Shown here: piece by piece, positions 7,284 through 54,084 of the stretch
Layout of the letters: each line of letters starts with the position of its first letter
How positions within the stretch are numbered: position 1 is the first letter of the stretch
Assembly (NCBI GenBank): GCA_002391235.1
Contig: DGRX01000013.1
Coordinates: 68,742-132,741 of the forward strand
DNA: 64,000 bases
Direction: 5' to 3'
Origin: Treponema sp. UBA4377
GTDB taxonomy: Bacteria > Spirochaetota > Spirochaetia > Treponematales > Treponemataceae
Notes under the pieces: generated by a model
Told to the model about the DNA's origin: nothing
What the model saw: the letters and a program-made list of their open reading frames with translations, nothing else
Databases searched by the model: none
Program-made: the position numbers and the translations under genes

Positions 7284-8659
7284 AAAAGGCGCGGCGGGCA
7301 ATCCGCCTTGCCGCGCCGGCAGCCTTTCTTTTTTGCGCTCTTTTTTCCTGTTCCTCAAAATCCAAAATTGATTTTCGCGAAAAAAAAACGCGCGAGGCTG
7401 GATTGGACGCGCAAATCGCCGCCCGCGATTTGGAACAAAAAAAATCCGCCGCGCTTGACTCCTACATAAAAAGCTTGTCTTTGAGCGAGCGCCTTGCCCA
7501 GCTTTTTGTAATCAACCTGGAAGGAAACGAGCGCTTTTGCTTTGTCGAATGGATGGACGACGCCCGCGACAATCGGACTCCAGGCCAAAAAGCGCCGCTT
7601 GTTCCCGGCGGCTACATTTTCTTTTCTTTCAACATCGCGCGCGACCCTGAGCGAATCGCCGCCTTTACAGATTCTGTCCGGGACTTTGCGCGCGGCCATG
7701 GAACGGTTGAGCCCTTTTTGTGCCTTGACGCGGAAGGCGGCTACGTAAACCGTTTGCGCGGCGTGGCCGGCCCGCTTCCCGAAAACGAATGGATTTCAAA
7801 AAATCTTTCGCCAAAAGAGGCCTTTTTGCTTTACTCGTTGAACGCAATCCAGCTTAGGGCGCTCGGCTTTGACCTAAACCTTTCGCCTGTTGTCGAAGTT
7901 CAAAACGAGGGCAACCAAGAATTTTTGGACGGCCGCTCTTTTGGAAGCGCCGGTCAAGTAAAAGATTACGGTTCGGCGGCGGTCTTGGCCTATCAAGCGA
8001 ACAAAGTGGCGGCCGTCTTAAAGCATTTTCCTGGCAACAACAGCGTCGACCCTCACAGGGCGCTTCCGCTTTTGTCATTTGAAAAGGAAGAGTTTGAGCG
8101 CGACGTTTTGGATCCCTTTAAGGCGCTTTGCGCGCTAGGTCCTTGCGGAGTTTTGATGAGCCACGCCCTTGTTGACCTTTCGCAGTCCGCCGCGCCTTAT
8201 GGCCAAGACGCTCCGGCAAGCCTTAGCCCGTATTGGATCAAAGAGCTTTTGCGAGGCCGCCTTGCTTTTGACGGGCTTGTCTTTAGCGACGACATTTTTA
8301 TGGCTGCCTTGGAAAAGAACGGCTGGCCAAGCGAGCGCGCGGTAAAGGCCGCTATTCTGGCCGGCGTCAATTGCATCCTTATGAGCGAAAAGCGTTTCAT
8401 CAATGAATGGAAACTTGTAAAAAAACTCTACGATTCAGACGCGGACTTTAGGGCGGCCGCCGACGACTCAATAAAGCGCGTTTTAAAGTTCAAGCTTGAA
8501 CAGGGAATTTTGGAATGGGATTTTGCCGGTGAAAAAATCGTTTCAAAAAAATCGCCGGGCGCTTTGGAAGAGGAGAAAAATCGCGCGGACCGCTTGGCCC
8601 GCTTTAATTCCGCCAAAAGCCTAAACCAGGAGGCTCTAAAAGAATATGGCCAAAGATAA
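7268..8659 (+). CDS. glycoside hydrolase family 3 protein (NagZ-like beta-N-acetylhexosaminidase), lipoprotein
   Basis: KHFPGNNSVDPH motif typical of the GH3 N-terminal domain; lipobox LFSCSS. Confidence 0.7.
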   Translation: MHRKIKKARRAIRLAAPAAFLFCALFSCSSKSKIDFREKKTREAGLDAQIAARDLEQKKSAALDSYIKSLSLSERLAQLFVINLEGNERFCFVEWMDDARDNRTPGQKAPLVPGGYIFFSFNIARDPERIAAFTDSVRDFARGHGTVEPFLCLDAEGGYVNRLRGVAGPLPENEWISKNLSPKEAFLLYSLNAIQLRALGFDLNLSPVVEVQNEGNQEFLDGRSFGSAGQVKDYGSAAVLAYQANKVAAVLKHFPGNNSVDPHRALPLLSFEKEEFERDVLDPFKALCALGPCGVLMSHALVDLSQSAAPYGQDAPASLSPYWIKELLRGRLAFDGLVFSDDIFMAALEKNGWPSERAVKAAILAGVNCILMSEKRFINEWKLVKKLYDSDADFRAAADDSIKRVLKFKLEQGILEWDFAGEKIVSKKSPGALEEEKNRADRLARFNSAKSLNQEALKEYGQR

Positions 8660-9509
8660 AAAGAAAAGCCTCCACGGGGAAGAGGCCTTTGAAGAATATT
8701 ATTCGGCGATTTACGGCGAGCGTTGGCCAACCCTTAAAGCCGCGCTCTTAAAGGAAAGCCAGCCCAAGGCTTTTAAAGCCTTTGACGGCGGCCCCGAATA
8801 TTTTTTGGACTCGGCCAGCGTTTTGGCGGCCTTAAGCCTTCCGTTAAAAAACGCCCAAAAGATTTTGGACATGTGCGCGGCTCCAGGCGGAAAAAGCTTG
8901 GTTCTTGCAAGGCGCATGAACGGCGGCGCAAGCCTTAGATGCAACGAGCGCTCCTTTGACCGCTTTCAGCGCTTGCGAAAAGTTGTCGCCGAACATTTGC
9001 CGCAAGACACGCAAGAGCGCGTGAAAATTTCTTGCGGCGACGGAGCGCTTTTGTGCAAAAAGGAAAGCGTATTGTACGACGCGATTTTGCTTGACGCGCC
9101 TTGCTCGTCCGAGCGCCACGTGCTGAACGACCCTAAGTATTTGGCCGAATGGTCGCCGGCCCGAGTAAAAAGCCTTGCGATGCAGCAATGGGCGCTTTTG
9201 TCTTGCGCCTTTAGGCTTTTGGCTCCGGGCGGCTTTTTGCTTTATTCCACTTGCGCGATAAACCAAAGCGAAAATTCCTCGCTTGCGGGCCGGCTTTTGG
9301 CTAAGTTTCCCGATGCCCGCGCTTTGCCGATTGAGGAGCTTTTGGACAAGCAAAAAGAGGCGGCGGAGGCCGTGAAAGGCTCTTTTGACATGGAAGCCCT
9401 TCCAAAATTCGAGGCGCAGGAGTTGGGGTTTTCGATTTTGCCCGACGTTCAGGACGGAGCGGGGCCCATATATTTTTGCCTTTTTGAAAAAACTATGGAC
9501 AAAATTTAA
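8646..9509 (+). CDS. RsmB/NOP2-family SAM-dependent RNA methyltransferase
   Basis: Motifs DMCAAPGGKS, LDAPCS and YSTCA. Confidence 0.75.
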   Translation: MAKDKKKSLHGEEAFEEYYSAIYGERWPTLKAALLKESQPKAFKAFDGGPEYFLDSASVLAALSLPLKNAQKILDMCAAPGGKSLVLARRMNGGASLRCNERSFDRFQRLRKVVAEHLPQDTQERVKISCGDGALLCKKESVLYDAILLDAPCSSERHVLNDPKYLAEWSPARVKSLAMQQWALLSCAFRLLAPGGFLLYSTCAINQSENSSLAGRLLAKFPDARALPIEELLDKQKEAAEAVKGSFDMEALPKFEAQELGFSILPDVQDGAGPIYFCLFEKTMDKI

Positions 9510-9534
9510 TGAATGTTCTATAATATTAGCGCTT

Positions 9535-11313
9535 ATGAAAAAAGATGAGTTGAAGAAAGTCAAAAATTCGCTTTCCAGCATCAAAGATTTTGACGACTTA
9601 TTGAATTCTCTGTTGACTCAAACCCGCAAAGCGATTCCTTCGGACGCGGGTTCTATCTATATCGTAGAAGAAAAAAAACTCACTATCAGGTGCGCGCAAA
9701 ACGACACCCAGCAAAAAGACCTGGAAGAGGGCGAGGAGCTTCCTTTTGTTTCCTTTTCTTTTCCAATAACCAAGACTTCAATCGCGGGCTACTGCGTTCT
9801 TTCAAAAGAGCCCTTAAACATTAAAGACGCTTACAACATTCCAAAATCCGAGCCGTATAAATTCAATGTCGGAACGGACGTTGTGACTGGCTACAAGACA
9901 ATTTCTTCAATCGCGCTTCCTTTGTTTGTGGCGGGCGGCCGCGTTCTTGGCGTCTTGCAGCTTATCAATAGGTTGGACAAAGACGGCAAAGTCACGACCT
10001 TTAGCGACGATGATTTGGAAATCGCGCAGGACTTGACCCTAAGCATTTCCACCGCTTTGGAAATGGCCGAGGCCGCCGAGCTTTCAAACGCGGCCTATCG
10101 CGGAAAGCACTTGCAGAGCATTTTTGAAATTGACCAAAAGCTTAACGAAATCCAAGATATCGACGTTTTGCTCGAACGCATTCTTACCGAGGCGCGAAAA
10201 ATCGTCAACGCCGACGCGGGTTCCATTTACGAAGTTCAAGGAAAGAACCTGGCGATCAAGTACGCGCAAAACGACACCCAGAGCGCGAAGCTCCAGCCTG
10301 GAGAAAAGCTTCCTTTCTTGTCTTTTTCGTTCCCGATAACCGAAAAGTCAATTTCTGGCTACGTCGCGTTGAGCGGCGAAACTTTGAACATTCACGACGC
10401 GTATAAAATTCCGGAAGGCGTTCCGTATTCCTTTAACCCCGCGTCCGACACCGCCACCGGCTACCACACAAAGTCGATGCTTACGATTCCGCTAAAAATC
10501 GCGGACTCAAGCTTGCTTGGCGTGCTTCAAATCATTAACGCAAAAAACGAAGAAGGCGAGTACATTGAATTTGACGCGGACGCGGAACTTTACATAAACC
10601 ACTTTGCCGCCAACGCCGCCAACGCTTTGGGCCAAGCCAAGAGCCGCCGTGACTTGATTGACGCCATGACAGAGATGGCCAATATGCGCGACCCCAAAGA
10701 AACCGGAATGCACGTAGCCCGCGTTTCAAAATTCTCCGTTGAAATTTACGACCGCTGGGCCTTTAACCATAACATTGACGAGTCCACTCGCGAAAAATTC
10801 CGCGACTTTTTGGCCACCGCCAGCAAGTGCCACGACTTTGGAAAGATTGGAATCGAAGACAAGATTCTTAAAAAGCCCGGCCGCTTTGACGACGACGAGC
10901 GCGCGATTATGAACAGCCACACTTGCTTGGGCGCGCTTTTGTTCAAGAACTTCAATTCGCCGCTTTTCCAAATGTGCCAAAACATCAACTTACGCCACCA
11001 CGAATGGTGGGACGGCAGCCGCGGCTATCCAGGAAAAATGGATTGGGAGTCTTACGAGCAAGGAAATCCCTTGCCAAAAGCTGAATGCCTTAAGGGCGAA
11101 GAAATCCCCTTGGAAGCCAGAATCGTTTCTGTGGCCGACGTGTTTGACGCCTTGAGCCACGCGCGCGTTTACAAGCCGGCGTGGACAATGGAAGACGCGG
11201 TCAACGAAATTCAAAAATGCTCGGGCACGCAATTTGATCCTGGCGTGGTCGAAGCCTTTATGCAAATAAAAGACCGCTTGATTGCCATCAGCAATTCTTA
11301 TGGAAGCGACTAG
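9535..11313 (+). CDS. GAF-GAF-HD-GYP domain protein (putative c-di-GMP phosphodiesterase)
   Basis: Two internally repeated GAF-like segments; HDFGKIG and GSRGYPGK motifs; start chosen at MKKDELKK. Confidence 0.8.
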   Translation: MKKDELKKVKNSLSSIKDFDDLLNSLLTQTRKAIPSDAGSIYIVEEKKLTIRCAQNDTQQKDLEEGEELPFVSFSFPITKTSIAGYCVLSKEPLNIKDAYNIPKSEPYKFNVGTDVVTGYKTISSIALPLFVAGGRVLGVLQLINRLDKDGKVTTFSDDDLEIAQDLTLSISTALEMAEAAELSNAAYRGKHLQSIFEIDQKLNEIQDIDVLLERILTEARKIVNADAGSIYEVQGKNLAIKYAQNDTQSAKLQPGEKLPFLSFSFPITEKSISGYVALSGETLNIHDAYKIPEGVPYSFNPASDTATGYHTKSMLTIPLKIADSSLLGVLQIINAKNEEGEYIEFDADAELYINHFAANAANALGQAKSRRDLIDAMTEMANMRDPKETGMHVARVSKFSVEIYDRWAFNHNIDESTREKFRDFLATASKCHDFGKIGIEDKILKKPGRFDDDERAIMNSHTCLGALLFKNFNSPLFQMCQNINLRHHEWWDGSRGYPGKMDWESYEQGNPLPKAECLKGEEIPLEARIVSVADVFDALSHARVYKPAWTMEDAVNEIQKCSGTQFDPGVVEAFMQIKDRLIAISNSYGSD

Positions 11314-11344
11314 CGCGCGTGGCGTTCTGGCCTTGAACTGATTT

Positions 11345-11839
11345 TCATTCTTGGATTATTTTGTTAAAGGCCGCGGCAAAGGCTTCAAATTCCTTTTGGC
11401 CGTAGGAATCCCTTTTTTTTGTCCCCAATCCCAGTCGGCTCATTTGCAGGCTAAGCTCGCGTTCCTTTAAGGCGCGCTCAATCTTTTGCTTGTCAAAAAC
11501 TTTTCCAAAGTCATTCATCGCCGCGACGCCTTTTTCCAAAAGCGAGGAGGCTAGCGGAATGTCGCGGGTAATCACAAGGTCGCCGGCGGCGGCGTTTGCA
11601 AGAATCCAATTGTCGGCCGCTTGGCTCTGGGCGGGGCAGACTATCATTTTAAAATTGGGATTTTGGCCGGCGGGCGAATCGGCGGACGACAAGTCGCGGT
11701 TTGCCGCGAAGATTAGTTCATAGGCGCTGCCTTTTGCCCGCGCCATAAGCCATTTTCGGACGCGCTTGGCGCAAGAATCCGCGTCAACCAATACACGCTC
11801 TTTCATCTGTCTAACTAAGCGCCCTGTCGATTTTTTCAA
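11345..11839 (-). CDS. YaiI/YqxD family protein (UPF0178)
   Basis: ADNWI...DLVITRDIPLAS pattern characteristic of UPF0178. Confidence 0.6.
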   Translation of the reverse strand: MKKSTGRLVRQMKERVLVDADSCAKRVRKWLMARAKGSAYELIFAANRDLSSADSPAGQNPNFKMIVCPAQSQAADNWILANAAAGDLVITRDIPLASSLLEKGVAAMNDFGKVFDKQKIERALKERELSLQMSRLGLGTKKRDSYGQKEFEAFAAAFNKIIQE

Positions 11840-12134
11840 TCATGCTTTTTGTAAGCCGGTCCGCTTCAAGTTCGGCCAAAGGGTCGGACTCGGCGGCGTT
11901 TTTTTGCGCCGCGTCTTTGGCTTCCAATGCTTTTTGCTTTTCCTTAAAAAGCTCGTCGGCGATCAAGATTCCGGCCAAGACAGCGGTTTGCTTTTGGTCT
12001 TGGATTCCGTCGCTTTTTTGTATTTCGTCGCAAACGTTTTTATAGTATTCGCGGATTTTTTCAAGGTAGGGGAGCTCTTCGTCTGTTTTAAGGGCGAACG
12101 ACGTTCCTAATATATTTATTTGAATTACAGCCAT
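11811..12134 (-). CDS. zapA: cell division protein ZapA-like
   Basis: 107 aa; N-terminal INILGTSFALKTDEE...YLEKI pattern and C-terminal coiled coil. Confidence 0.55.
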   Translation of the reverse strand: MAVIQINILGTSFALKTDEELPYLEKIREYYKNVCDEIQKSDGIQDQKQTAVLAGILIADELFKEKQKALEAKDAAQKNAAESDPLAELEADRLTKSMIEKIDRALS

Positions 12135-12146
12135 GCGGGGTGTTTG

Positions 12147-12680
12147 CTAGAAGATGTCGGGAACGCTTTCTTCTTGGGTTTCAAAAGAGTCGTCGCCGAA
12201 CAAGTCGCCGCCGGCTTCTGCCGCTTGCGTCGCTTCTGTTTGCTGAACGGGGCTGGCGAAAGACGCCTGCTCTTGTACGGGAGCGGCTGGGGCCGCTTCC
12301 GCCTGCGCCGGCTGGGCGGGGGCTGCCCGCTCAGTTGCCGGCTGAACAGCGGCGGCCGCGCCTTCGCCCGAGTCGGCAAGCGGGGCTTGCCGCTCTCTTG
12401 TGGTATTGCAGTCGGCTTTAGCGTTGCTAAAGCCTCCGCTCGAGTCGAGCAGGGCGTTTTCCACCGCGTCCAAGCGGTTTAGGGCGCCGAGGATTCCGTC
12501 CTCAATCTTTTTTTCGTCAGCGCTAAAGCGGGAAAGCAGCTCCGATTTTTCAGAAAGCGCTTTTGTGAGCTCTGAACGCTCGGCGCGCAGAGCATCGTTT
12601 TCTGATTTAAGCTGTTCGATTTTTTGAACAGCGCTTTCCACTTTTTGCTGCAAAAGAAGGATTGTTTCAACGGAAATCAT
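12147..12680 (-). CDS. coiled-coil protein (ZapB/DivIVA-like) with Ala/Pro/Gln-rich tail
   Basis: N-terminal heptad-rich 80 aa, low-complexity C-terminus, adjacent to zapA. Confidence 0.45.
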   Translation of the reverse strand: MISVETILLLQQKVESAVQKIEQLKSENDALRAERSELTKALSEKSELLSRFSADEKKIEDGILGALNRLDAVENALLDSSGGFSNAKADCNTTRERQAPLADSGEGAAAAVQPATERAAPAQPAQAEAAPAAPVQEQASFASPVQQTEATQAAEAGGDLFGDDSFETQEESVPDIF

Positions 12681-12695
12681 CAGCGTCCTCTTTTA

Positions 12696-13052
12696 TTAGG
12701 CCAAAGCCTTCTTGGCGGCTTCTACAACAGCCTTGAAAGCTTTGGGATCTTCAATGGCCATGTTAGACAAGGCCTTGCGGTTTACCTTGATTCCGGCTTT
12801 TGTAACGCCGTCGATAAAGCGCGAGTAAGACAAGCCTTCGTCGCGAACAGCGGCGTTGATACGGGCGATCCACAATGAGCGGTATTCGCCTTTCTTGTCT
12901 TTGCGTCCGACATAAGCGTGGTCGAGCGCTTTTGTGACCGCGTCTTTCGCGGCCTTGAAGTTTGTTCCTCTGCGGCCCTTAAAGCCTTTTGCAAGCTTAA
13001 GGATTTTCTTGCGCCTGTCGGCTCTTCTTGTTCCATCTACTGCTCTAGACAT
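12696..13052 (-). CDS. rplT: 50S ribosomal protein L20
   Basis: Basic 118 aa protein with a [28 protein letters not shown] signature. Confidence 0.95.
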
Positions 13053-13064
13053 GGTTCGCTCCTA

Positions 13065-13271
13065 TCAACCGTAGGGAAGCATTTGCTTCCTAACTTTCGC
13101 TGCTTCTGATTCCGCAAGAATGCCTGTCTGGCGGAGCTGTCTCTTTCTCTTAGGTGAACGCTTGGTCAAAATATGGCGCAAGTTCATCTTCTTGTACTTT
13201 ACCTTTCCTGTTCCGGTAAGCGAAAAGCGCTTTGAAGCGGATTTCTTTGTCTTCATCTTTGGCATAGCCAA
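13065..13271 (-). CDS. rpmI: 50S ribosomal protein L35
   Basis: MPKMKTKKSASKRF N-terminus; position between infC and rplT. Confidence 0.9.
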   Translation of the reverse strand: MAMPKMKTKKSASKRFSLTGTGKVKYKKMNLRHILTKRSPKRKRQLRQTGILAESEAAKVRKQMLPYG

Positions 13272-13278
13272 TACCTCT

Positions 13279-13803
13279 TTAATTTTTGGCTTTTGATGAT
13301 ATTGTCATCGACATGAACTTGCCTTCCATAGCGGCCGGCTTTTCGATGACATACGCCGAGGTAAGCCTTTTTAGAACCTCTTCAAGAACTCCAAATCCCA
13401 AGTCAGTGTGGGCAAGCTCGCGTCCGCGGAAGCGGATCGTTACCTTTACCTTGTTGCCTTCGTCAAGGAACTCTTGCACATGCTTAGCTTTCGTGTCAAG
13501 ATCGCCCGGTCCGATTTTGGGCTGCATCCTGATCTCTTTTAGTTTCAATACCTTTTGCTTTTTCTTGGAGTCACGGAGCTTTTTCTCCTGTTCAAAGCGG
13601 TATTTTCCGAAATCGAGTATTTTGCATACAGGCGGATTTGCAGTCGGCGCGACTTCAACAAGGTCGAGATCCCGGTCTTTAGCCATTTTGAGGGCTTCCA
13701 TTGTGGGAACGATTCCCATCTGGTTGCCTTCATCATCTATAAGGCGAACTTCCCTGACCCGAATCCGTTCATTGATTCTAGGTCCCTTATTATTGTCTGC
13801 CAA
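13279..13803 (-). CDS. infC: translation initiation factor IF-3
   Basis: [18 protein letters not shown] signature. Probable non-ATG start (TTG at 13803, 4 nt after GAGGAGG); the track ORF extends to a GTG at 13830. Confidence 0.9.
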
Positions 13804-13914
13804 CTGGCCTCCTCGTGTCGCAAAAAACACACATGTATATTAAGCGTAAACTAGATTATATCAGAAAAAGCGCTTGTTAGTCTAGTGGTAGGTGAAAAAT
13901 AATGGTCGTAAAAT

Positions 13915-23166: not shown

Positions 23167-23237
23167 GATGATTAGCTTAGTGGTAGAGCGCTTCCTTCAC
23201 ACGGAAGAGGTCGTTGGTTCGATCCCAATATCATCCA
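23167..23237 (+). tRNA. tRNA-Val (anticodon CAC)
   Basis: Hand-folded cloverleaf: acceptor GGATGAT/ATCATCC, anticodon loop TTCACAC, T arm GTTGG-TTCGATC-CCAAT; no encoded CCA. Confidence 0.85.
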
Positions 23238-23239
23238 AA
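23212..23239 (+). repeat. attL core (3' end of tRNA-Val)
   Basis: CGTTGGTTCGATCCCAATATCATCCAAA, identical to 50965..50992. Confidence 0.85.
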
Positions 23240-23284: not shown

Positions 23285-23307
23285 GTGACAGCAGATTGAC
23301 AGCAAAT
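23285..23307 (+). promoter_or_regulatory. tandem GTGACAGCA-type repeats (candidate integrase arm-type sites)
   Basis: GTGACAGCAGATTGACAGCAAAT lies just upstream of int. A similar tandem, TTGTCAGCA..ATGATAGCAGATATGATAGCAAAT, lies near attR. Confidence 0.45.
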
Positions 23308-23318
23308 GGAGGAACAAA

Positions 23319-24449
23319 ATGCGTGTGACGGAACCTTACATCATATTTCCCAGAACACTTCCTTCCGGACGTGTGGTTTATTACTACCAATACCGCGACG
23401 CTTCCGGGCGGCGCTCAAGCGCCCTTTCGACCGGAGAGACGGTCCTTTCAAAGGCGAAAAGAAAAATCCAGAAGATGTACAACGATGGCGCCTTTTCGAA
23501 GGAAATCCGTTCGGTTTTGTTTTCGGATTTTGCAAAGGGCTTTTTTGACAAAGACGGAAAGTACTTTGAATTCCAAGCCCTTACAAGCCGTCCGATTAAG
23601 GACAACACCCTTATCTTGTACCGTAAGCTTCTTGCGAACCAGCTGATTCCTTTTTTTGGTGAAAAGCAAATTGGTGACGTCAGCAAGGACGTTGTGAAGG
23701 ATTGGATCGTCTGGGCGAGTGGATTCTGGTCAGCGAAGACCGTAAACAACGCCCGTGGCGTCTTGAACATAATACTTGAAGCGGCTGTTGACAAAGAAAT
23801 CATAGACAGGAATCCTTTGGCAGGAATCAAGTATAGGCCTACTGAAAGAAAGAGCCGCAGGTTGCTTACGCCAGACGAAATTAAAGAAGTGTATTTTTCT
23901 CAGCTCTGGACTAGGGATTGTCAAAGAAAAATGTTTCTTTTGGCTGCCCTTACTGGAATGAGAATAGGCGAGGTCGCCGCTTTGCGAAAAGAGGACTTGC
24001 ACGAAAACTACATCGACGTTTCTCACACGTATTCTGACAGCTTGGGGTTGGGCAGCACAAAGACCGGCGAAAGCCGAAAGGTCCCAATCTTGGAGAATTT
24101 TGATTTCGGAGAGTCGCGGACCGAATGGGTGTTTGAGGGGCTTTCTGCAGATCGTCCTATGTTCTCGCACGCGGTATACAACACGTTCGCTAGAATCTGC
24201 GACAAGCTTGGTATAGACAGGAAAGGAAGAGGAATCACGATTCATTCGCTTCGGAACTTTTTCATTTCGTACTTGCAGGAAGAGAACGTTCCTGAAAGCA
24301 AGATAAAGGCCGTTGTGGGCCACAAGGACAAGTCTGACATGACTGAGCGCTACACCTATTGGCGGCCCGATATGTTTCCCGAAGTCTACGCCGCTCAAAA
24401 AAAGCTTTATACAGCTATAGTTGGCTCAGCTGCCCAAAAGGCAAGATAA
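23319..24449 (+). CDS. tyrosine site-specific integrase (phage-integrase family)
   Basis: 376 aa; arm-binding-type N-terminus. Catalytic pattern: R (GMRIGE), K, HSLRNFF, HKDKSDMTERYTY with the terminal Tyr. Confidence 0.9.
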   Translation: MRVTEPYIIFPRTLPSGRVVYYYQYRDASGRRSSALSTGETVLSKAKRKIQKMYNDGAFSKEIRSVLFSDFAKGFFDKDGKYFEFQALTSRPIKDNTLILYRKLLANQLIPFFGEKQIGDVSKDVVKDWIVWASGFWSAKTVNNARGVLNIILEAAVDKEIIDRNPLAGIKYRPTERKSRRLLTPDEIKEVYFSQLWTRDCQRKMFLLAALTGMRIGEVAALRKEDLHENYIDVSHTYSDSLGLGSTKTGESRKVPILENFDFGESRTEWVFEGLSADRPMFSHAVYNTFARICDKLGIDRKGRGITIHSLRNFFISYLQEENVPESKIKAVVGHKDKSDMTERYTYWRPDMFPEVYAAQKKLYTAIVGSAAQKAR

Positions 24450-24628
24450 AGAAAAGCGCTCCACTTTCGGCTTAATTTATTATTTTATATGTAATTAAAG
24501 TGCTCCACTTTGCTTAAAAAGTGGAGCGCTTTTGGAGCACTGTTTTTTTTATCTCAAAAACAGGCTCGTCGATTTTTCTTCTTGACATATATAAATATGT
24601 ATAATTATATATATATGGAGGTGGCTGC

Positions 24629-24901: not shown

Positions 24902-25231
24902 TGGACAAAGAAAAAAAAAGAAGTCCGAATCAATTTCATTCCCGAAGCCGTCGAAGACTACAATAATCTTGACGGAAGCCAAAGAAAATCCGTCAACAAG
25001 GAAATTGACAAACTGAAGGCCAACCCATTCGCGGGCCGGGAGTTTGGAAACAAGGACAACGTGGATTTGACCGGCTTCTACAAAATGTACGCATGCAACA
25101 AAAGCATACGGATTGTTTACAGGCTGCTCTCCGCCGAGAAAATAGAAGTGGTGGAAATTTGGGGAATCGGAAAAAGGGACAAGCTGAAGATTTACAAGAC
25201 TGTGGGAGCGAGGGCGAACAAAGCGAAATAG
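24901..25231 (+). pseudogene. relE: RelE/ParE-family toxin gene interrupted by a frameshift in an A9 tract
   Basis: The ATG at 24901 reads MDKEKK and stops after 21 codons. The next frame from 24920 reads EVRINFIPEAVEDYNNLDGSQRKSVNKEIDKLKANPFAGRE...IRIVYRL..EKIEVVEIWGIGKRDK (RelE/ParE-like) up to the TAG at 25229. Removing one A from A9 (24911..24919) restores a single ORF. Confidence 0.7.
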
Positions 25232-25327
25232 GAAGCGGCGGATGCCATAAAAGCTGTAACGGCAAGTTATGGCTACAAGCCTGAGCGCTCTCGTCTCCGC
25301 GGACAGACGGGTGCCGCCATTGCTTCC
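25231..25327 (-). ncRNA. about 97-nt three-way-junction repeat (3WJ element), copy v1
   Basis: Minus-strand GGAAGC-AAT-GGCGG...CCGCC-GCTTCC with two internal hairpins. Minus-strand TTGACA (25361..25356), a 16-nt spacer and TACAAT (25339..25334) place +1 at about 25327. Confidence 0.5.
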
Positions 25328-25560
25328 AAGAATATTGTAGCGCAATTTGCGCGCGTGTCAATTACTCACGTTGAGTAAAAGGCTTGACGGTTGTTGCGTA
25401 TGCACTATACTTGGATTGTCGGTTACGTCAGAGATAGCCGCTGCGGCTTTTCCATATTAAAGAGAAAATCTTCCGACATTACATTGTTCGACCGTAATGC
25501 CTTTATGAAGGACGGAACCCTTGTACCTTCGGAAGATTAGTAAAAACGTAACACAAAATT

Positions 25561-25643: not shown

Positions 25644-25740
25644 GGAAGCGGCAGAAACCATAAATGCGGTGAACGCCAGATATGGCTACAAACCTGAGTT
25701 TCACGAGATATACGCTCGGGTGGGAGCTGCCATTGCTTCC
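25644..25740 (-). ncRNA. 3WJ element, copy v5
   Basis: Same architecture with GGCAG/CTGCC replacing GGCGG/CCGCC. The same TTGACA/TACAAT promoter sits immediately upstream on the minus strand. Confidence 0.5.
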
Positions 25741-25834
25741 AAGAATATTGTAGCGCAAATCGCGCGCGTGTCAATTACTCACGTTGTGTAAAAGGCTTGA
25801 TGGTTGACGCAGCGCTCTTCTTTCTTTAATTCCG

Positions 25835-42185: not shown

Positions 42186-42220
42186 GACAGGAATAATTAT
42201 AGCGCGCTTGCGTTTCTTGT

Positions 42221-42240
42221 CATTAAAGTATTACTTTATT
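42221..42240. promoter_or_regulatory. palindromic site s7 (CATTAAAG-tatta-CTTTATT)
   Basis: Leftward promoter for 41703..42110. Rightward TTGACA (42239..42244), N17, TACACT (42262..42267). Confidence 0.6.
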
Positions 42241-42271
42241 GACAACTTCTTCTTTATGGCTTACACTTAAA

Positions 42272-42340
42272 GAGCCTTGAATGGTCGACCGCGGGGGTAA
42301 TAAGAACCCTCTTTCGCTTGACCATTCAAGGCTTTTTTGT
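42272..42340 (+). ncRNA. HP small RNA unit, copy g
   Basis: GCCTTGAATGG...CCATTCAAGGC followed by TTTTTTG; the interior differs from other copies but still pairs. Confidence 0.5.
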
Positions 42341-42446
42341 TGTGTCAACTTACCTCGAACAGCATTATAATCGCGCTTTAATCAAATTACATTTTTTGTT
42401 GACAAAATTGTATTTACACTTTATAATTACTTTTAGGCGGTGAGAA

Positions 42447-43008: not shown

Positions 43009-43020
43009 GCATGATTCGCG

Positions 43021-43040
43021 CATTAAAGTATTACTTTATT
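43021..43040. promoter_or_regulatory. palindromic site s8 (CATTAAAG-tatta-CTTTATT)
   Basis: Rightward TTGACA-N17-TATACT. Confidence 0.6.
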
Positions 43041-43071
43041 GACAACTTCTTCTTTTTGGCTTATACTTAAA

Positions 43072-43140
43072 GAGCCTTGAGTAGACATCTGGGTGGGAAA
43101 ATATATCCCTCTTCCACGTGTCCACTCAAGGCTTTCTTGT
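43072..43140 (+). ncRNA. HP small RNA unit, copy h
   Basis: GCCTTGAGTAG...CCACTCAAGGC followed by TTTCTTG. Confidence 0.45.
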
Positions 43141-43155
43141 TGTGTCAACTTCCCC

Positions 43156-44103: not shown

Positions 44104-44176
44104 GGAAAAAAGAAGCCTTGAATGGTCAAATAGAAGACGGCTCTTATTACCGAATCAAATGACTATTCAAGGCTCC
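44104..44176 (-). ncRNA. HP small RNA unit, copy j (the only minus-strand copy)
   Basis: Minus-strand TTGACA (44208..44203), N17, TAGATT (44185..44180). Hairpin GCCTTGAATAG...CCATTCAAGGC followed by TTCTTTTTT. Confidence 0.5.
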
Positions 44177-44241
44177 TAAAATCTAATTCAAAAACAAGGC
44201 ATTGTCAATAAAAGCAAGCGGTCTTTTTCCAACTTGGCGGC

Positions 44242-45096: not shown

Positions 45097-45146
45097 GCTT
45101 CTTTATGTTCTCCTAAATTGATTGTATGATGAATGCTCCGTTTTGT

Positions 45147-45166
45147 CATTAAAGTATTACTTTATT
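45147..45166. promoter_or_regulatory. palindromic site s11 (CATTAAAG-tatta-CTTTATT)
   Basis: Leftward TACAAT-like promoter for the HEPN gene. Rightward TTGACA (45165..45170), N17, TACACT (45188..45193). Confidence 0.6.
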
Positions 45167-45197
45167 GACAACTTCTTCTTTTTGGCTTACACTTAAA

Positions 45198-45266
45198 GAG
45201 CCTTGAGTGGTCAATCATGGGGGCAATAGTAGCCCTCTTTCGTTTGTCCATTCAAGGCTTTTTTGT
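45198..45266 (+). ncRNA. HP small RNA unit, copy k
   Basis: GCCTTGAGTGG...CCATTCAAGGC followed by TTTTTTG; inner stem GGGGGC-AATAGTA-GCCCTC contains a G-U pair. Confidence 0.5.
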
Positions 45267-45437
45267 TTTAATTGACAAATAATTTTTTCTTGTGATATAT
45301 TTTTTGAAAGAGCTTTAAAAAAAAGACCGCCACGTTCCCTAGCACTGCAAAAAGCAGGAGAAAGGATTGCGTGGCTTACATAAGCATTATATGCGATATT
45401 AGTATAAAAGTCAAGGACAGATTTTTATTGGAATAAT

Positions 45438-45926: not shown

Positions 45927-46010
45927 CGTTGTTGCGGCGGGGGTCGAACCCGCAATACGAACTTTATTGCGTAAAGTTTCCTCTACCGCGTTGAGGGCAT
46001 CGCAACAACG
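45927..46010 (-). ncRNA. tRNA-mimic element TL2
   Basis: 10-bp stem CGTTGTTGCG/CGCAACAACG, linker ATGC, D arm CCTC-AACGCGGTA-GAGG, 6-7 bp anticodon-like stem, T arm GCGGG-TTCGACC-CCCGC, then TTTTTTT. Confidence 0.55.
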
Positions 46011-46106
46011 GGAAGCGGCGGAAACCGTAACGACGGTAAACGCCGTTACAGCTACAAGCCTGAGCGCTCTCGTTTCCGCGGACAGACGGGTGCCGCCATT
46101 GCTTCC
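46011..46106 (-). ncRNA. 3WJ element, copy v3 (directly 5' of TL2 on the minus strand)
   Basis: Hairpin P3 is CTGTAAC/GTTACGG (a U-G pair on the minus strand). Confidence 0.5.
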
Positions 46107-46248
46107 AAAAACTCAAAACAAGCCGGATTAATTCCGACTGCCCCAAGCAAGATTCCATTGGTAAACTTGAATCTCAGAAACAATATCTGAGGCAGAGATT
46201 TACTGACAATGGAATTAATTAATTATATAGCATGGATGCGATTCTTGT

Positions 46249-47238: not shown

Positions 47239-47248
47239 GAAAAAAAAC

Positions 47249-47345
47249 GGAAGCGGCGGAAACCGTAACGACGGTAAACGCGCGTTACGGCTACAAGCCT
47301 GAGCGCTCTCGTCTCCGCGGACAGGCGGGTGCCGCCATTGCTTCC
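47249..47345 (-). ncRNA. 3WJ element, copy v4
   Basis: P3 is CCGTAAC/GTTACGG; followed on the minus strand by GTTTTTTTT. Confidence 0.5.
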
Positions 47346-47444
47346 AAAAGACGCGGAAAACAAGACCGCGCTTTTATTGGACAGGATACAACAAGCGCTA
47401 TCTCTCGCCCAACAATTTTATTATAATGCAAAAACGGTTTTTGT

Positions 47445-48523: not shown

Positions 48524-48596
48524 TTTTTTGCTCCTTATTTTTTTTTCTTGTCTCTCAACCGACGGAGAAAAGTATAGAGCAAACAATGGGTTAGCG

Positions 48597-48616
48597 CATT
48601 AAAGTTGTGCTTTAAT
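48597..48616. promoter_or_regulatory. palindromic site s15 (CATTAAAG-ttgtg-CTTTAAT)
   Basis: Upstream of the lipoprotein gene promoter; left boundary of module A. Confidence 0.6.
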
Positions 48617-49060
48617 ACTGTGCCAGTTGAGATGATGCAACGTTGCGCCATCTTGTATTTCTTTCTTAATTGTCAACGGATTCGTTTTTTCCATAGTGCC
48701 TAAAAGTGCCCCAAAAGTGCACTCAAAGTGCCCCAAAAAAAATGTAATGTGGGGCACTCTAAAGCACTATAATAAAAAGAATTAAACGAATTATGGGGCA
48801 CTTTTCTTTATCTTGCCTTTCGGACAAATCACTTGACTATTTCTTCTTAGGGTGTATTTTCATCCTGCCAACTTTTTTTTGCTTGGTACGGACGGCTTTT
48901 GGCTAGCCGGGAGCAGTCCTTGGGTAAAATGACTGACTGGCTCGCAAGATGGCGCAACGTTGCGCCGTCTTAACTGCGAAAATTTTTCTAGGGAAAGCGC
49001 AAACTTTCAGCTTATAAGAACTTAGTTTGCGCTGGTAACCTGAGCCATAATTTTTTTTTC
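48617..49060 (+). repeat. ORF-free module A (iterons AGTGCCCC, flanking 22-24 bp palindromes)
   Basis: Palindromes GATGATGCAACGTTGCGCCATC (48631..48652) and AGATGGCGCAACGTTGCGCCGTCT (48947..48970). Iterons at 48695..48802. Stem AGCGCAAACT/AGTTTGCGCT. Parallel architecture to 49965..50394. Confidence 0.65.
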
Positions 49061-49202
49061 TTGACAAATGGCATATCCATAATTATATTCTAATTAAGCG
49101 AAGAAGTGGGGCGTACGAGCCAAAAAGGTAAATGGCTTTTGGCTTGAGCTCTTCAACGAATTTTCCGACAATGTCTTTTATTTGTATTTTTGCTTCTCTT
49201 GT

Positions 49203-49222
49203 CATTAAAGTTGTTCTTTAAT
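49203..49222. promoter_or_regulatory. palindromic site s16 (CATTAAAG-ttgtt-CTTTAAT)
   Basis: Same left-flank polarity as the other sites. Confidence 0.55.
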
Positions 49223-49369
49223 TATTCAATAAACCATTGACGGAATTATGTTTGCCTGTTACTATATTATCGCTTGAAGAGGAATCAATTTCTTCGCCGA
49301 GTGTTAAAGGCTTGTCCGAAAGGGCAAGCCTGATTTTTTTAAACTGAAGCGGCGGATTTTGTCATTGCT

Positions 49370-49479
49370 AAAAAAACGCTCCCGCCAAAAGGCAGGAGCG
49401 AATGTCGTTAGAGGGCAGCGCTCCTCTGTCGCATAATTCCAATGGAAAAGCCGCAGTGGCTATCTCTGACGTAAACGAC
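49370..49479 (-). ncRNA. empty-cassette transcript T3
   Basis: TATAAT at 49491..49486; same leader, tail and terminator as T2. Confidence 0.5.
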
Positions 49480-49511
49480 AAGCAAATTATAGCGCAAGAT
49501 CGGGGAGAGCG

Positions 49512-49531
49512 CATTAAAGCCGCGCTTTAAT
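49512..49531. promoter_or_regulatory. palindromic site s17 (CATTAAAG-ccgcg-CTTTAAT)
   Basis: Provides the -35 region for T3. Confidence 0.6.
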
Positions 49532-49545
49532 AACATGCGATGCAA

Positions 49546-49764
49546 TCAATGACGGGCAGCTTTTTTTTCTTCTTCCAAATAAGAGCTGATTTTGCGAATT
49601 ATTTTTGCGACGTCGAACTAATCGGGATTTTTTATGGACGCGGAATATTTTTCAGTTTCCACATCAAATGTCAATCGGTATTTTTGGTGAGGAAGGGTGT
49701 CCATTGATTCGACAATCATGGACACATTTCTTCCAGTCCGTTCAATGTTGGTAAGCTTTATCAT
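49546..49764 (-). pseudogene. small ORF with an in-frame TAG (48 plus 23 codons)
   Basis: MIKLTNIERTGRNVSMIVESMDTLPHQKYRLTFDVETEKYSASIKNPD-stop-FDVAKIIRKISSYLEEEKKAARH; TAG at 49620..49618. Confidence 0.4.
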
Positions 49765-49814
49765 GTACGTTTTTGTAAACTTTTCTTTTCACTTTTCTTA
49801 GTGAACATAAAAAC

Positions 49815-49911
49815 GGAAGCGGCAGAAACTATAAATGCGGTGAACGCCAGATATGGCTACAAACCTGAGTTTCACGAAATATACGCTCAGGTGGGTGCTG
49901 CCATTGCTTCC
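49815..49911 (-). ncRNA. 3WJ element, copy v6
   Basis: TATAAT (49923..49918) lies 7 nt before the first G; followed on the minus strand by GTTTTTAT. Confidence 0.5.
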
Positions 49912-49944
49912 AAAAATATTATAGCGCTCGTCTTTAGCGCTTGT

Positions 49945-49964
49945 CATTAAAGTTGTGCTTTAAT
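49945..49964. promoter_or_regulatory. palindromic site s18 (CATTAAAG-ttgtg-CTTTAAT)
   Basis: Supplies ATGACA-N18-TATAAT for v6; left boundary of module B. Confidence 0.6.
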
Positions 49965-50394
49965 ACTGTGTCAGTAAAGATGGCGCAACGTTGCGCCGTC
50001 TTAGATTTCTATCCTAATTGTCAACAGTTTTGCCGTCCCATAGTGCGTTAAAGTGCGTTAAAAGTGCGTTGAAAAATACGATGTTTAACGCACTCCAATT
50101 ATTGATAATGTAAAGAGTTAGGAGATGTTCAACGCACTTTTCTTTATCTTGCCTTTCGGACAAATCACTTGACTATTGCTTATTAGAGTGCATTATCCTC
50201 CTACCAGCCTGATTTTGCCTGTTTTGGGAAGCTTATGGCTTGCCGGTCGCCTTTGCCGCTTGGATGGCTGGCCGGTTTTCAAGATGATGCAACGTTGCGC
50301 CGTCTTAACTGAAGACAATGCTTCTAGGGAAAGCGCAAACTTTCTGCTTAAAAGAACTTAGTTTGCGCTGGTAAACGGAGCTTTAATTTTTTCC
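49965..50394 (+). repeat. ORF-free module B (iterons AGTGCGTT, flanking palindromes)
   Basis: Palindrome core GGCGCAACGTTGCGCC (49982..49997) and GATGATGCAACGTTGCGCCGTC (50283..50304). Iterons at 50042..50138. A 43-nt block is identical to module A. Confidence 0.65.
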
Positions 50395-50433
50395 TTGACA
50401 AAAGCCATATCCATAATTATATTATAATTATGC

Positions 50434-50505
50434 GAGGAAGTGGTGAGAATCATTTCCGCCAGAAAAGCTGACGGACAGGAAACTGAGCAATACGGAGGGC
50501 TTTGA
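50434..50505 (+). pseudogene. brnT: brnT remnant (last ~22 codons only)
   Basis: EEVVRIISARKADGQETEQYGGL matches the conserved BrnT C-terminus (compare HIISARPATSRERKLY at 42447..42764). It lies directly behind a brnT-type TTGACA-N17-TATATT promoter. Confidence 0.55.
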
Positions 50506-50506
50506 T

Positions 50507-50716
50507 ATGAGAGACCATTACGATTTTTCAAAGGCTGTGAAAAACCCTTATATTGGAAAACTCAAGCAGCAAATAACAATCCGCTTGGATGAGCAGGTGA
50601 TTGACTATTTTAAGGAAATGTCGAACGAAACGGGAATGCCTTACCAGAACATCATCAACTACTATCTTCTTGACTGCGTGAAATCGAATCGCCGTTTGGA
50701 ACTCGCCTTCGCGTAA
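50507..50716 (+). CDS. brnA: BrnA-family antitoxin (orphan)
   Basis: YDFSKAVKNPYIGKLKQQITIRLDEQVIDYFKEMSNETGMPYQNIINYYLLDC. Confidence 0.7.
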   Translation: MRDHYDFSKAVKNPYIGKLKQQITIRLDEQVIDYFKEMSNETGMPYQNIINYYLLDCVKSNRRLELAFA

Positions 50717-50801: not shown

Positions 50802-50837
50802 TTGTCAGCATTTATGATAGCAGATATGATAGCAAAT
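50802..50837 (+). promoter_or_regulatory. tandem TGTCAGCA/ATGATAGCA repeats near attR (candidate integrase arm-type sites)
   Basis: TTGTCAGCATTTATGATAGCAGATATGATAGCAAAT; related to the tandem at 23285..23307. Confidence 0.45.
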
Positions 50838-50964: not shown

Positions 50965-50992
50965 CGTTGGTTCGATCCCAATATCATCCAAA
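50965..50992 (+). repeat. attR core (28-bp copy of the tRNA-Val 3' end)
   Basis: Exact match to 23212..23239; overlaps the last codons of the MATE gene. Confidence 0.85.
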
Positions 50993-53778: not shown

Positions 53779-53851
53779 GCCAACTTAGCTCACCTGGTAG
53801 AGCAGCGCACTCGTAACGCGCAGGTATTCGGTTCAAGTCCGGAAGTTGGCT
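53779..53851 (+). tRNA. tRNA-Thr (anticodon CGT)
   Basis: Hand fold: acceptor GCCAACT/AGTTGGC, D arm GCTC-ACCTGGTA-GAGC, anticodon loop CTCGTAA, T arm TTCGG-TTCAAGT-CCGGA. Confidence 0.8.
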
Positions 53852-54018
53852 TTAACTTAAGCGTTTCCTTTGGGGGGAACGCTTTTTTTTGTTTGTGAGC
53901 GTTTTGGTTACTGCGGACTTAAACCGAGCGGCTCAATAAATTTCGCCGCGCGCCGTTCTATCGATGAGGCTAAAAGCGAGCGGCGCTCGCTTTTTTAACG
54001 CCTCTTCGATTGTCGGCG

Positions 54019-54041
54019 GGTTCAAGTCCGGAAGTTGGCTT
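54019..54041 (+). repeat. 23-bp copy of the tRNA-Thr 3' end (relic att site)
   Basis: GGTTCAAGTCCGGAAGTTGGCTT is identical to 53830..53852. Confidence 0.7.
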
Positions 54042-54048
54042 AAATTTA

Positions 54049-54084
54049 CGCCTAACCATAGCGGTTGGGCGTTTTTTTTTTTTT
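54049..54084 (+). terminator. Rho-independent terminator
   Basis: CGCCTAACC-ATAG-CGGTTGGGCG followed by a T13 run. Confidence 0.6.

Follow-up and report, generated by a model that had tools for sequence, protein, structure and literature searches.

Candidate relaxase-less transfer origins with different repeat addresses on a tRNA-Val island of Treponema sp. UBA4377

In this study, we analysed a stretch of 64,000 nucleotides from Treponema sp. UBA4377 (contig DGRX01000013.1, here contig C13, 68742-132741; hereafter the window). It contains a 27.8-kb genomic island that is inserted in a tRNA-Val gene and carries three short modules, A, B and C. We propose that these modules are probably relaxase-less copies of an origin of transfer (oriT) on a mobilizable island, each addressing a different helper element. 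The assembly comprises 31 contigs and 2.67 Mb and is 90.5% complete. Relatives of the module sequences were taken from metagenome-assembled genomes of Treponemataceae and from Treponema plasmids. To our knowledge, hardly any integrative element has a known origin of transfer except in model Proteobacteria and Firmicutes, and in the literature we found no paper on an oriT of Treponema or another spirochaete.

Results

Layout of modules A and B

A preliminary description of the window, made from its letters, had reported two modules that lack open reading frames (ORFs) and share one layout, and this was borne out. In an alignment, A (48560-49120) and B (49905-50460) have a mean column identity of 86%, a 43-nt block is identical between them (48799-48841 in A, 50135-50177 in B), and each module holds a cluster of its own 8-mer. 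The word of A, AGTGCCCC, occurs five times in the 64-kb window, four of them within 98 bp of A (48705-48802); 1.1 occurrences are expected per window, and five were reached in none of 100 shuffles. The word of B, AGTGCGTT, also occurs five times, all within 97 bp of B (50042-50138). As stated before, no ORF is common to A and B and no cognate gene lies beside the modules in the window. Rfam returned nothing for the modules at the gathering threshold and, at E<=1, just a sub-threshold miRNA match on the palindromic repeats. Full-length copies were present neither elsewhere in the genome nor in 300 genomes of the family, where only pieces were found.

Offsets of the repeats are counted here from the first base of the core. 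Read from the left, A consists of a 26-bp palindrome (GAGATGATGCAACGTTGCGCCATCTT, 48629-48654), a leftward promoter remnant (AATTGTCAAC, 48668-48677, minus strand, with the -35 box TTGACA) and four direct repeats (48695-48734, plus strand), namely AGTGCCTA at -108, AGTGCCCC at -98, AGTGCACT at -87 and AGTGCCCC at -76. Inverted copies on the minus strand (48751-48802) follow as GGGGCACT at -52 (48751-48758) and at -8 (48795-48802), with a degenerate inverted copy, AAAGCACT, at 48761-48768 (minus strand). The core, TTTCTTTATCTTG/CC (48803-48817, plus strand; the slash marks the presumed nick), lies inside the identical 43-nt block and is the candidate nick region. It is followed by a weak rightward promoter-like site (TTGACT-16-TATTTT, 48833-48860, plus strand), by a variable stretch of about 100 nt on the leading side of the presumed nick (48842-48945, plus strand) and by a second 26-bp palindrome (48946-48971). 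In B, between palindromes at 49977-50002 and 50281-50306, AGTGCGTT stands three times in direct orientation at -97, -87 and -76 (50042-50070, plus strand) and its inverted form AACGCACT at -52 (50087-50094) and -8 (50131-50138; together 50087-50138, minus strand), ahead of the same core (50139-50153, plus strand). All five repeats of B are thus identical, and A has four perfect copies, including those at -76, -52 and -8.

The modules match a region upstream of relaxase operons

About 290 bp of each module (48668-48971 and 50016-50306) match the intergenic region between the relaxase and topoisomerase III genes of Treponemataceae conjugative elements. In A, this homology begins at the promoter remnant and ends with the right palindrome. 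The corresponding part of B (50016-50306, plus strand) agrees at 83% overall with the metagenome sequence L068. On the left of its module, L068 has the genes, in this order, of a 77-aa protein, a PF03432 relaxase, a C5 methylase, a VirD4-type coupling protein, VirB11, a TrbC pilin and VirB4, and on the right that of topoisomerase III. Its intergenic region comprises a promoter box, AATTGTCAACAG, three copies of AGTGACGC with two inverted ones, the same 35-nt core block and, downstream of the core, a B-like stretch of about 100 nt followed by the same palindrome. The L068 counterpart of the promoter remnant drives the operon for the small protein, the relaxase and the type IV secretion system (T4SS), and the weak rightward site is kept in position in both B and L068. 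In the complete genome G083, the core lies between a relaxase/VirD4/VirB11/TrbC/VirB4 operon, again with a PF03432 relaxase, and topoisomerase III. In pTRESU01, a plasmid of cultured T. succinifaciens with an MPF_T-type mating apparatus, three copies of GTGCCACA and then TTTTTTATCTTGTGG stand between a relaxase homologue and a topoisomerase gene. Homologous regions directly upstream of PF03432 relaxase operons were seen in L068, G083/L057, L075, L081 and pTRESU01, which represent the parents and not the copies of the window.

A scan with TTTCTTTATCTTGCCTNTCGG gave seven hits in species-representative genomes, all of Treponemataceae or Spirochaetia, and 17 metagenome contigs, 13 of them with true modules. 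An origin from phages was rejected, as the core had 0 matches in the IMG/VR viral contigs, and blastn of the 43-nt block against PLSDB gave no meaningful hit to an annotated plasmid oriT. Of 338 genomes of the genus, 69 (20%) encode relaxases of the module-associated family, and 30 of more than 85 such loci were read. In 13 of the 26 loci with enough upstream sequence, TATCTTGC stands in the module sense no more than 700 nt ahead of the relaxase, and it was never seen in antisense or inside genes; about 0.3 loci are expected by chance. Element-specific repeats precede it in each of the 13. An 18-nt core is present in 15 of the 338 genomes (0 for the reversed control), and a 21-nt core is identical in G083 and L068, whose relaxases are just 30% identical. 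We regard it as very likely that the modules stem from the region that precedes the relaxase gene in conjugative elements. This comes close to an outcome that the preliminary description had set against its own proposal, namely that the modules are fragments of a known IS or phage end with an annotated function: they do match the presumed oriT region of a conjugative element, but this region had no earlier description or annotation.

The core as a candidate nick site

TATCTTGC matches the MOBP nick consensus (C/T)ATCCTG(C/T), which is known from the RP4 oriT, the Ti-plasmid borders and H. pylori tfs4 (PMC3772185, the source of the motif used here), in 7 of 8 positions, the one mismatch being located within the hexamer. 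By this comparison, the cleavage point within CACTTTTCTTTATCTTGCCTTTCGG would lie after ...ATCTTG, that is, after G48815 in A and after G50151 in B. The repeats that abut the core would offer a protein-binding site 5' of the nick, as expected of an oriT. Because the parent region lies upstream of the relaxase and T4SS genes, has an invariant core with a 7/8 motif match, carries abutting repeats and is framed by divergent promoters, an oriT is its best reading, and we consider it likely that the core is the nick site.

The core also resembles the nick sequence of pC194-type replicons, but the gene context speaks against a replication origin. No rep gene was found beside any of more than 40 homologous modules; their partners are relaxase and T4SS genes and topoisomerase III.

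A variable four-base address at fixed positions

The preliminary description had suggested two specificity variants of one DNA-binding protein, and the larger sample agrees in that the 8-mers behave like arrays of binding sites that form one family and can switch specificity. It also agrees with the modules being cis-acting sites of a mobile element. AGTG is constant, the last four bases vary, and more than 12 words occur in homologous modules. The offsets -108/-98/-87/-76 (direct) and -52/-8 (inverted) are fixed across at least eight words (AGTGCCCC, AGTGCGTT, AGTGCGGT, AGTGCTCC, AGTGCACY, AGTGACGC, AGTGGTAC and AGTGTGTT), and all AGTG-type modules have the inverted pair -76/-52 and a copy that abuts the core at -8. 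Further words are AGTGCCGT, AGTGCTAC, AGTGATGTA, GTGATACC, GGTTGG, CGGTACACC and ATGTCCGAC.

The claim that all 8-mers of a module switch in concert needed revision: the change is mostly concerted, but mixed arrays occur and the spacers change too. Between A and B, the spacers differ by 39-47% and the 8-mers by 38%. Since the spacers differ as much as the 8-mers, a segment of about 110 bp was replaced, rather than the 8-mers being altered by matched point changes. The segments that neighbour the identical 43-nt block differ by 34-47%. B differs from L068 by 0-12% on the promoter side, in the core and in the downstream 110 nt, and by 29-50% throughout -109 to -1. At the same chromosomal position and behind the same left flank, the word is AGTGCCCC in the window and in L066, AGTGCACY in L071 and AGTGACGC in L065. 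The last word is common to the full element L068 and to orphan modules, lacking conjugation genes, in L065, L066 and L062. Compared with the full element, the AGTGACGC orphans have unchanged repeats at -52 and -8, while their spacers differ by 6-19% and their downstream part by 26%.

In many contigs, orphans with at least six different words end at the same trimmed boundaries, and they can be stacked, three in L066 and four in L062. L062 (Ga0256407_10070352, 3296 bp) carries oriT-like modules with the words AGTGCGGT, AGTGCACY, AGTGCTCC and AGTGACGC in both orientations, together with six palindromes within 3.3 kb. Mixed arrays combine AGTGCACT, AGTGCACC and AGTGCCCA in L071 and L062, and AGTGCGTT with AGTGCGGT in L062 and L069; the mixed modules of L062 sit at -391 and +1582, and distal copies are the least faithful.

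A small protein encoded ahead of some relaxases

Five homologues of the small protein of L068, 68-77 aa long, align well. Pfam gave no match for them and no significant match to a NikA or MobC model, and one protein is weakly, below threshold, similar to the NCBIfam MobA model. AlphaFold predicts a disordered basic N-terminus followed by strand-helix-helix, with a pLDDT (predicted local distance difference test) of about 90 at residues 30-50. Almost all top Foldseek matches are ribbon-helix-helix (RHH) proteins (NikA, CopG, Arc, ParG) with non-significant E-values, as is usual for such small domains. The predicted fold is that of an RHH protein. Covariation of this protein with the repeat words found no support, as its beta-strand is nearly invariant and its gene is not universal; the reader of the variable tetranucleotide may be either the RHH protein or the relaxase.

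Palindromes and stem units

The GC-rich palindrome occurs twice in each of A and B. With at most two mismatches, GCGCAACGTTGCGC is found in the window at 48635, 48952, 49983 and 50287 and at one chance-like site, and the 26-bp form is restricted to these four places in the whole assembly. Orphan modules carry one such palindrome at each edge of their homology to the conjugative element. In L068, the 26-bp palindrome (AAGACGGCGCAACGTTGCGCCGTCTT) has eight copies (8033-13875), which lie between genes in the transfer operon and around the gene of topoisomerase III; the RHH ORF reads through one copy at its 3' end, and the spread recalls the operators that are scattered over IncP plasmids. The palindrome is a cis-element distributed across the parent conjugative element and may be a regulator site.

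The 10-bp stem, which the preliminary description had listed as a part of the layout, is a separable element (AGCGCAAACT...AGTTTGCGCT, 48996-49033 in A; 50332-50369 in B). Another genome has this unit at places without a module, and the versions of the conjugative elements lack it; it belongs to the cassettes of the island.

The island and its third module

The island (23213-50992) is bounded by an exact 27-bp attachment (att) repeat, with attL (23213-23239) being the 3' end of the tRNA-Val gene and attR located at 50966-50992. The tRNA is followed by the gene of the island's tyrosine integrase (376 aa, PF00589; 23319-24449, plus strand). The cargo includes BrnT/BrnA, HEPN, PIN/MazE-like proteins, an AAA_14 ATPase, SLOG and phosphoesterases. 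Given the position of attR, the distance of A and B from the right end of the island is 0.6-2.3 kb. Just inside the att repeats are different tandem 8-9-mers, two copies of TGACAGCA near 23286-23306 and two of ATGATAGCA near 50803-50825.

The search for further modules in the genome that had been suggested yielded a third, module C (24440-24541, minus strand). The genome has exactly three copies of the core TTTCTTTATCTTGCC, in A, in B and, as its reverse complement GGCAAGATAAAGAAA, at 24440-24454, where it overlaps the last codons of the integrase gene. The repeats of C, AGCGCTCC/AGTGCTCC, start at 24455, 24499, 24523 and 24534 in the layout of A and B; C has no palindromes. It was not found in the homologous island of G282, whose integrase is a pseudogene. 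A role as fixed partner of the integrase was rejected, as the integrase homologues of other genomes are not followed by C.

Among the ORFs of the island, Pfam scans detected no relaxase or T4SS genes. In addition, tblastn of the own genome was negative with the RHH homologues as well as with the RHH protein, relaxase, coupling protein and VirB4 of L068. The sole PF03432 match of the genome is on contig C14; this relaxase was rejected as the cognate one, being 25% identical over a short stretch and lacking the core in its upstream region. The same contig carries a separate integrative mobilizable element (C14:28690-40000, L048) with an integrase, a helix-turn-helix repressor, a NikA-like protein, a MobA/VirD2 relaxase, ParA, an AIPR abortive-infection protein and AAA_14/DUF4143. 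Ahead of the nikA gene stands GTATCGTCCTGCGC, the presumed oriT of this element, which is unlike the module core.

Between 32050 and 49964 of the window, about 20 copies of a 19-bp palindrome, ATTAAAG-N5-CTTTAAT, mark the edges of small gene units. Their TTGTC/GCGC flanks occur in hybrid combinations, TTATAGCGC-N13 precedes each, and the order of the units around them varies among L065, L066 and L071. One copy stands directly left of A (48598-48616), outside the homology to conjugative elements, and one directly left of B (49946-49964). A and B begin right after this boundary palindrome, and B ends with GAGCTTTAAT, a direct repeat of its right arm; this placement hints at site-specific insertion. 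An interpretation of the array as integron cassettes was rejected, as neither boundary palindromes nor modules have the attC form (RYYYAAC...GTTRRRY). It fails because the true integron of the genome, with classical attC sites of a different form, is on contig C1. There (C1:1-9100, outside the window, with some N-masked stretches), a classical chromosomal integron with an IntI that scores 411 bits to TIGR02249 has its cassettes separated by canonical attC sites (...CATAAC...GTTATG).

The number of modules at the right end of the island varies among strains, with none in G282, one in L071 and three in L066. The cassette after B comprises a BrnT remnant and BrnA (50507-50716), and in G282 its promoter directly follows a boundary palindrome with no module between. 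This strong promoter (50395-50423, plus strand, 11 of 12 consensus positions) is outside module B; like its counterpart at 49061-49089, it is a TTGACA-N17-TATATT promoter of the island cassettes and lies outside the transfer-origin homology. Over its -10 box, the BrnT-remnant/BrnA promoter region (50395-50445) has a perfect palindrome, CATAATTATAT with TATAATTATG, which is probably the BrnA operator, and a part of 22-25 nt is 100% identical in more than 20 genomes of the family from several genera.

Other repeats were observed in the window. A family of about 100 nt (25231-25345, 25644-25756, 46005-46110, 47243-47349 and 49809-49915) forms a long-range stem with compensatory changes (GGAAGCGGCGG...CCGCCATTGCTTCC versus GGCAG...CTGCC) and probably represents a structured element of the island, either RNA or DNA. 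Units of 125 nt (42217-42341, 43017-43141, 45143-45267 and, inverted, 44106-44212) consist of a consensus promoter, a long imperfect hairpin and a T-run, and are candidate small RNA genes. The 3' part (53830-53875) of a tRNA-Thr gene (53779-53851) is repeated 190 bp downstream at 54019-54064 with 80% identity, which looks like the scar of another integration.

Discussion

Mobilization by helpers of matching address

The presumed parents of the modules are integrative and conjugative elements (ICEs) and plasmids with a P-type T4SS, which are common in this genus of Treponemataceae. Their candidate oriT region lies between two divergent units, the operon of (RHH protein,) relaxase, coupling protein and T4SS on one side and topoisomerase III on the leading side. 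The relaxase would nick at the invariant core. The 110 bp or so 5' of the core, the presumed address, carry AGTG+N4 repeats one helical turn apart (-98/-87/-76) with inverted copies at -52 and -8; one or more 26-bp palindromes belong to the same region, as they do between many genes of the parent elements. A specificity factor of the helper, either the small RHH protein or, in other elements, a variable N-terminus of the relaxase, might bind the address and position the relaxase on the core. The island would hold three such origins with three addresses (AGTGCCCC, AGTGCGTT and AGTGCTCC) next to an integrase. Without a relaxase or T4SS of its own, it could therefore move only with a helper of matching address: it would excise by its own integrase, the relaxosome of the helper would nick one module, and transfer would proceed through the pore of the helper, as is proposed for oriT-only islands (iOriTs, Vibrio MGIs). 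The sequences show the homology to regions ahead of relaxase genes, the repeat geometry, the change of repeat words, the limits of the island and its lack of transfer genes; that a relaxase cuts at the core, which protein binds the repeats and that the island is indeed mobilized are inferred from them. Use of the copies of this island for mobilization is plausible, if somewhat doubtful.

Several observations weigh against this proposal. A helper of this family is missing from the 90.5%-complete assembly, and our sample contained no full element that carries one of the words of the three modules A, B and C. The core deviates from the MOBP hexamer ATCCTG by one base. In full elements it is always upstream of topoisomerase III, in whose expression it may have a role. 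In G190, G227 and G129, a module and an RHH gene occur without an adjoining relaxase, and several relaxase loci of this architecture (L075, L081, L084, L093 and G083) lack the RHH gene, while the RHH beta-strand is almost invariant although the repeats differ. Mixed repeat words in some orphans could reflect decay, and the strain-variable presence of modules is as expected for dispensable DNA.

The last two points, together with the shuffled order of the cassettes, the lack of cognate genes near the modules and a leftward promoter with nothing to drive, would fit modules that are inert relics of conjugative elements, recombined with the repeat-rich cassette array of the island and without present function. 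However, the repeats are intact in B and perfect in four copies of A, and the 43-nt block has stayed identical beside strongly diverged segments. Furthermore, the AGTGACGC orphans have kept their -52 and -8 repeats amid changed spacers and downstream sequence, and orphans with at least six words share the same trimmed boundaries and are stacked. We consider relics unlikely.

Alternatively, the modules might be decoys that titrate the relaxosome or regulators of incoming elements in defence of the island, or sites that sense a helper. The island is rich in conflict genes (HEPN, PIN/MazE-like, BrnT/BrnA, AAA_14 ATPase, SLOG/phosphoesterases), several addresses are stacked, and A and B each have two palindromes of the type with eight intergenic sites in L068, which an origin alone would not need. 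But stacking and placement next to the integrase are equally expected for hitch-hiking, and few binding sites per genome would titrate little protein; a decoy or sensor function seems quite improbable.

The roles considered in the preliminary description, arm-type sites of an integrase or excisionase, a palindrome-bounded invertible segment or replication and partition iterons, are very improbable: phased direct repeats followed by inverted copies do resemble such sites and C adjoins the integrase gene, but A and B are 0.6-2.3 kb from the att repeats, which have different tandem repeats just inside, C is absent after other integrase homologues, the orientation is constant in the related flanked copies (L065, L066, L071 and the flanked L062 module), copies of the palindrome are scattered between genes of the conjugative element, and the homologues lie upstream of relaxase/T4SS operons and not beside rep, par or recombinase genes.

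Returning to the proposal of relaxase-less transfer origins, it is tempting to speculate that the segment of about 110 bp is an address that is swapped while conjugative elements and their hitch-hikers engage in an arms race, although we regard this extension as unlikely on the sequences at hand. Helpers would diversify the AGTG+N4 tetranucleotide and its reader to shed parasites, and islands would collect several addresses. Addresses might be exchanged at the invariant core by relaxase-mediated recombination between two oriTs, or by homologous recombination across the conserved flanks. Such an address swap would explain why unrelated repeat segments have near-identical flanks, why strains differ by allelic replacement at one chromosomal site and why up to four addresses are stacked in 3.3 kb. 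In a variant of this scenario, the stacks would be decoys that interfere with incoming elements.

In summary, this study describes a candidate oriT family for conjugative elements of Treponemataceae, with an invariant nick-like core, a rigid repeat geometry and a variable four-base address. Copies without a relaxase are present in a defence and toxin-antitoxin island that is integrated at a tRNA gene. If this reading is true, the strategy of hitch-hiking with an oriT only extends to another phylum, one island can address several helpers, and more than 12 specificity variants are available from nature to study the recognition of an origin by its relaxosome. The core CTTTATCTTGCC with its flanking repeats may serve as a search handle for mobile DNA in spirochaete genomes from gut and rumen.

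Comparison with known systems

The presumed parents resemble MOBP systems in their VirD2/RlxS-like relaxase and P-type T4SS, in the nick-like core TATCTTG/C (7 of 8 positions), in repeats immediately 5' of this core and in the location between divergent promoters upstream of the relaxase operon. They differ in the mismatch within the essential hexamer and in having phased 8-mers with a variable tetranucleotide instead of one long inverted repeat; their relaxases score best to the RlxS and MobP3 models, but below the cut-offs of both.

RHH proteins that bind repeated sites are known as relaxosome accessory factors, such as NikA of R64, TraY of F, TrwA of R388 and the MobA/MobC types. Likewise, an RHH protein of 68-77 aa is predicted to be encoded beside the repeats, ahead of the relaxase, in some of the elements, and NikA is among the top fold matches. 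Unlike these accessory proteins, it lacks a significant NikA or MobC match in Pfam, its gene is missing from many elements with the same repeats, and its beta-strand is constant across repeat words.

Islands that carry an oriT without a relaxase are described as iOriTs (Ares-Arroyo et al., 2026, bioRxiv 10.64898/2026.01.13.699239), and in the mobilizable genomic islands (MGIs) of Vibrio the oriT mimics that of SXT/R391 ICEs (PMC5397120). The island studied here shares several features with these oriT-only islands: it is delimited by att sites, encodes its own integrase, carries at least one homologue of a presumed conjugative oriT and has no relaxase or mating-pore genes; its cargo is also rich in defence and toxin-antitoxin genes. 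It differs from iOriTs and MGIs in belonging to Spirochaetota, in its unrelated oriT family, in the lack of a helper in the assembly and in that its mobilization is predicted from sequence. It also differs in combining three putative origins with three addresses in one island, with up to four stacked in related contigs. Elements with more than one oriT, such as ICEclc with two and R6K, are cited in the iOriT study (bioRxiv 10.64898/2026.01.13.699239). As in ICEclc and R6K, the island would hold more than one origin of one family in one element, but its copies differ systematically in address and the element that carries them has no relaxase.

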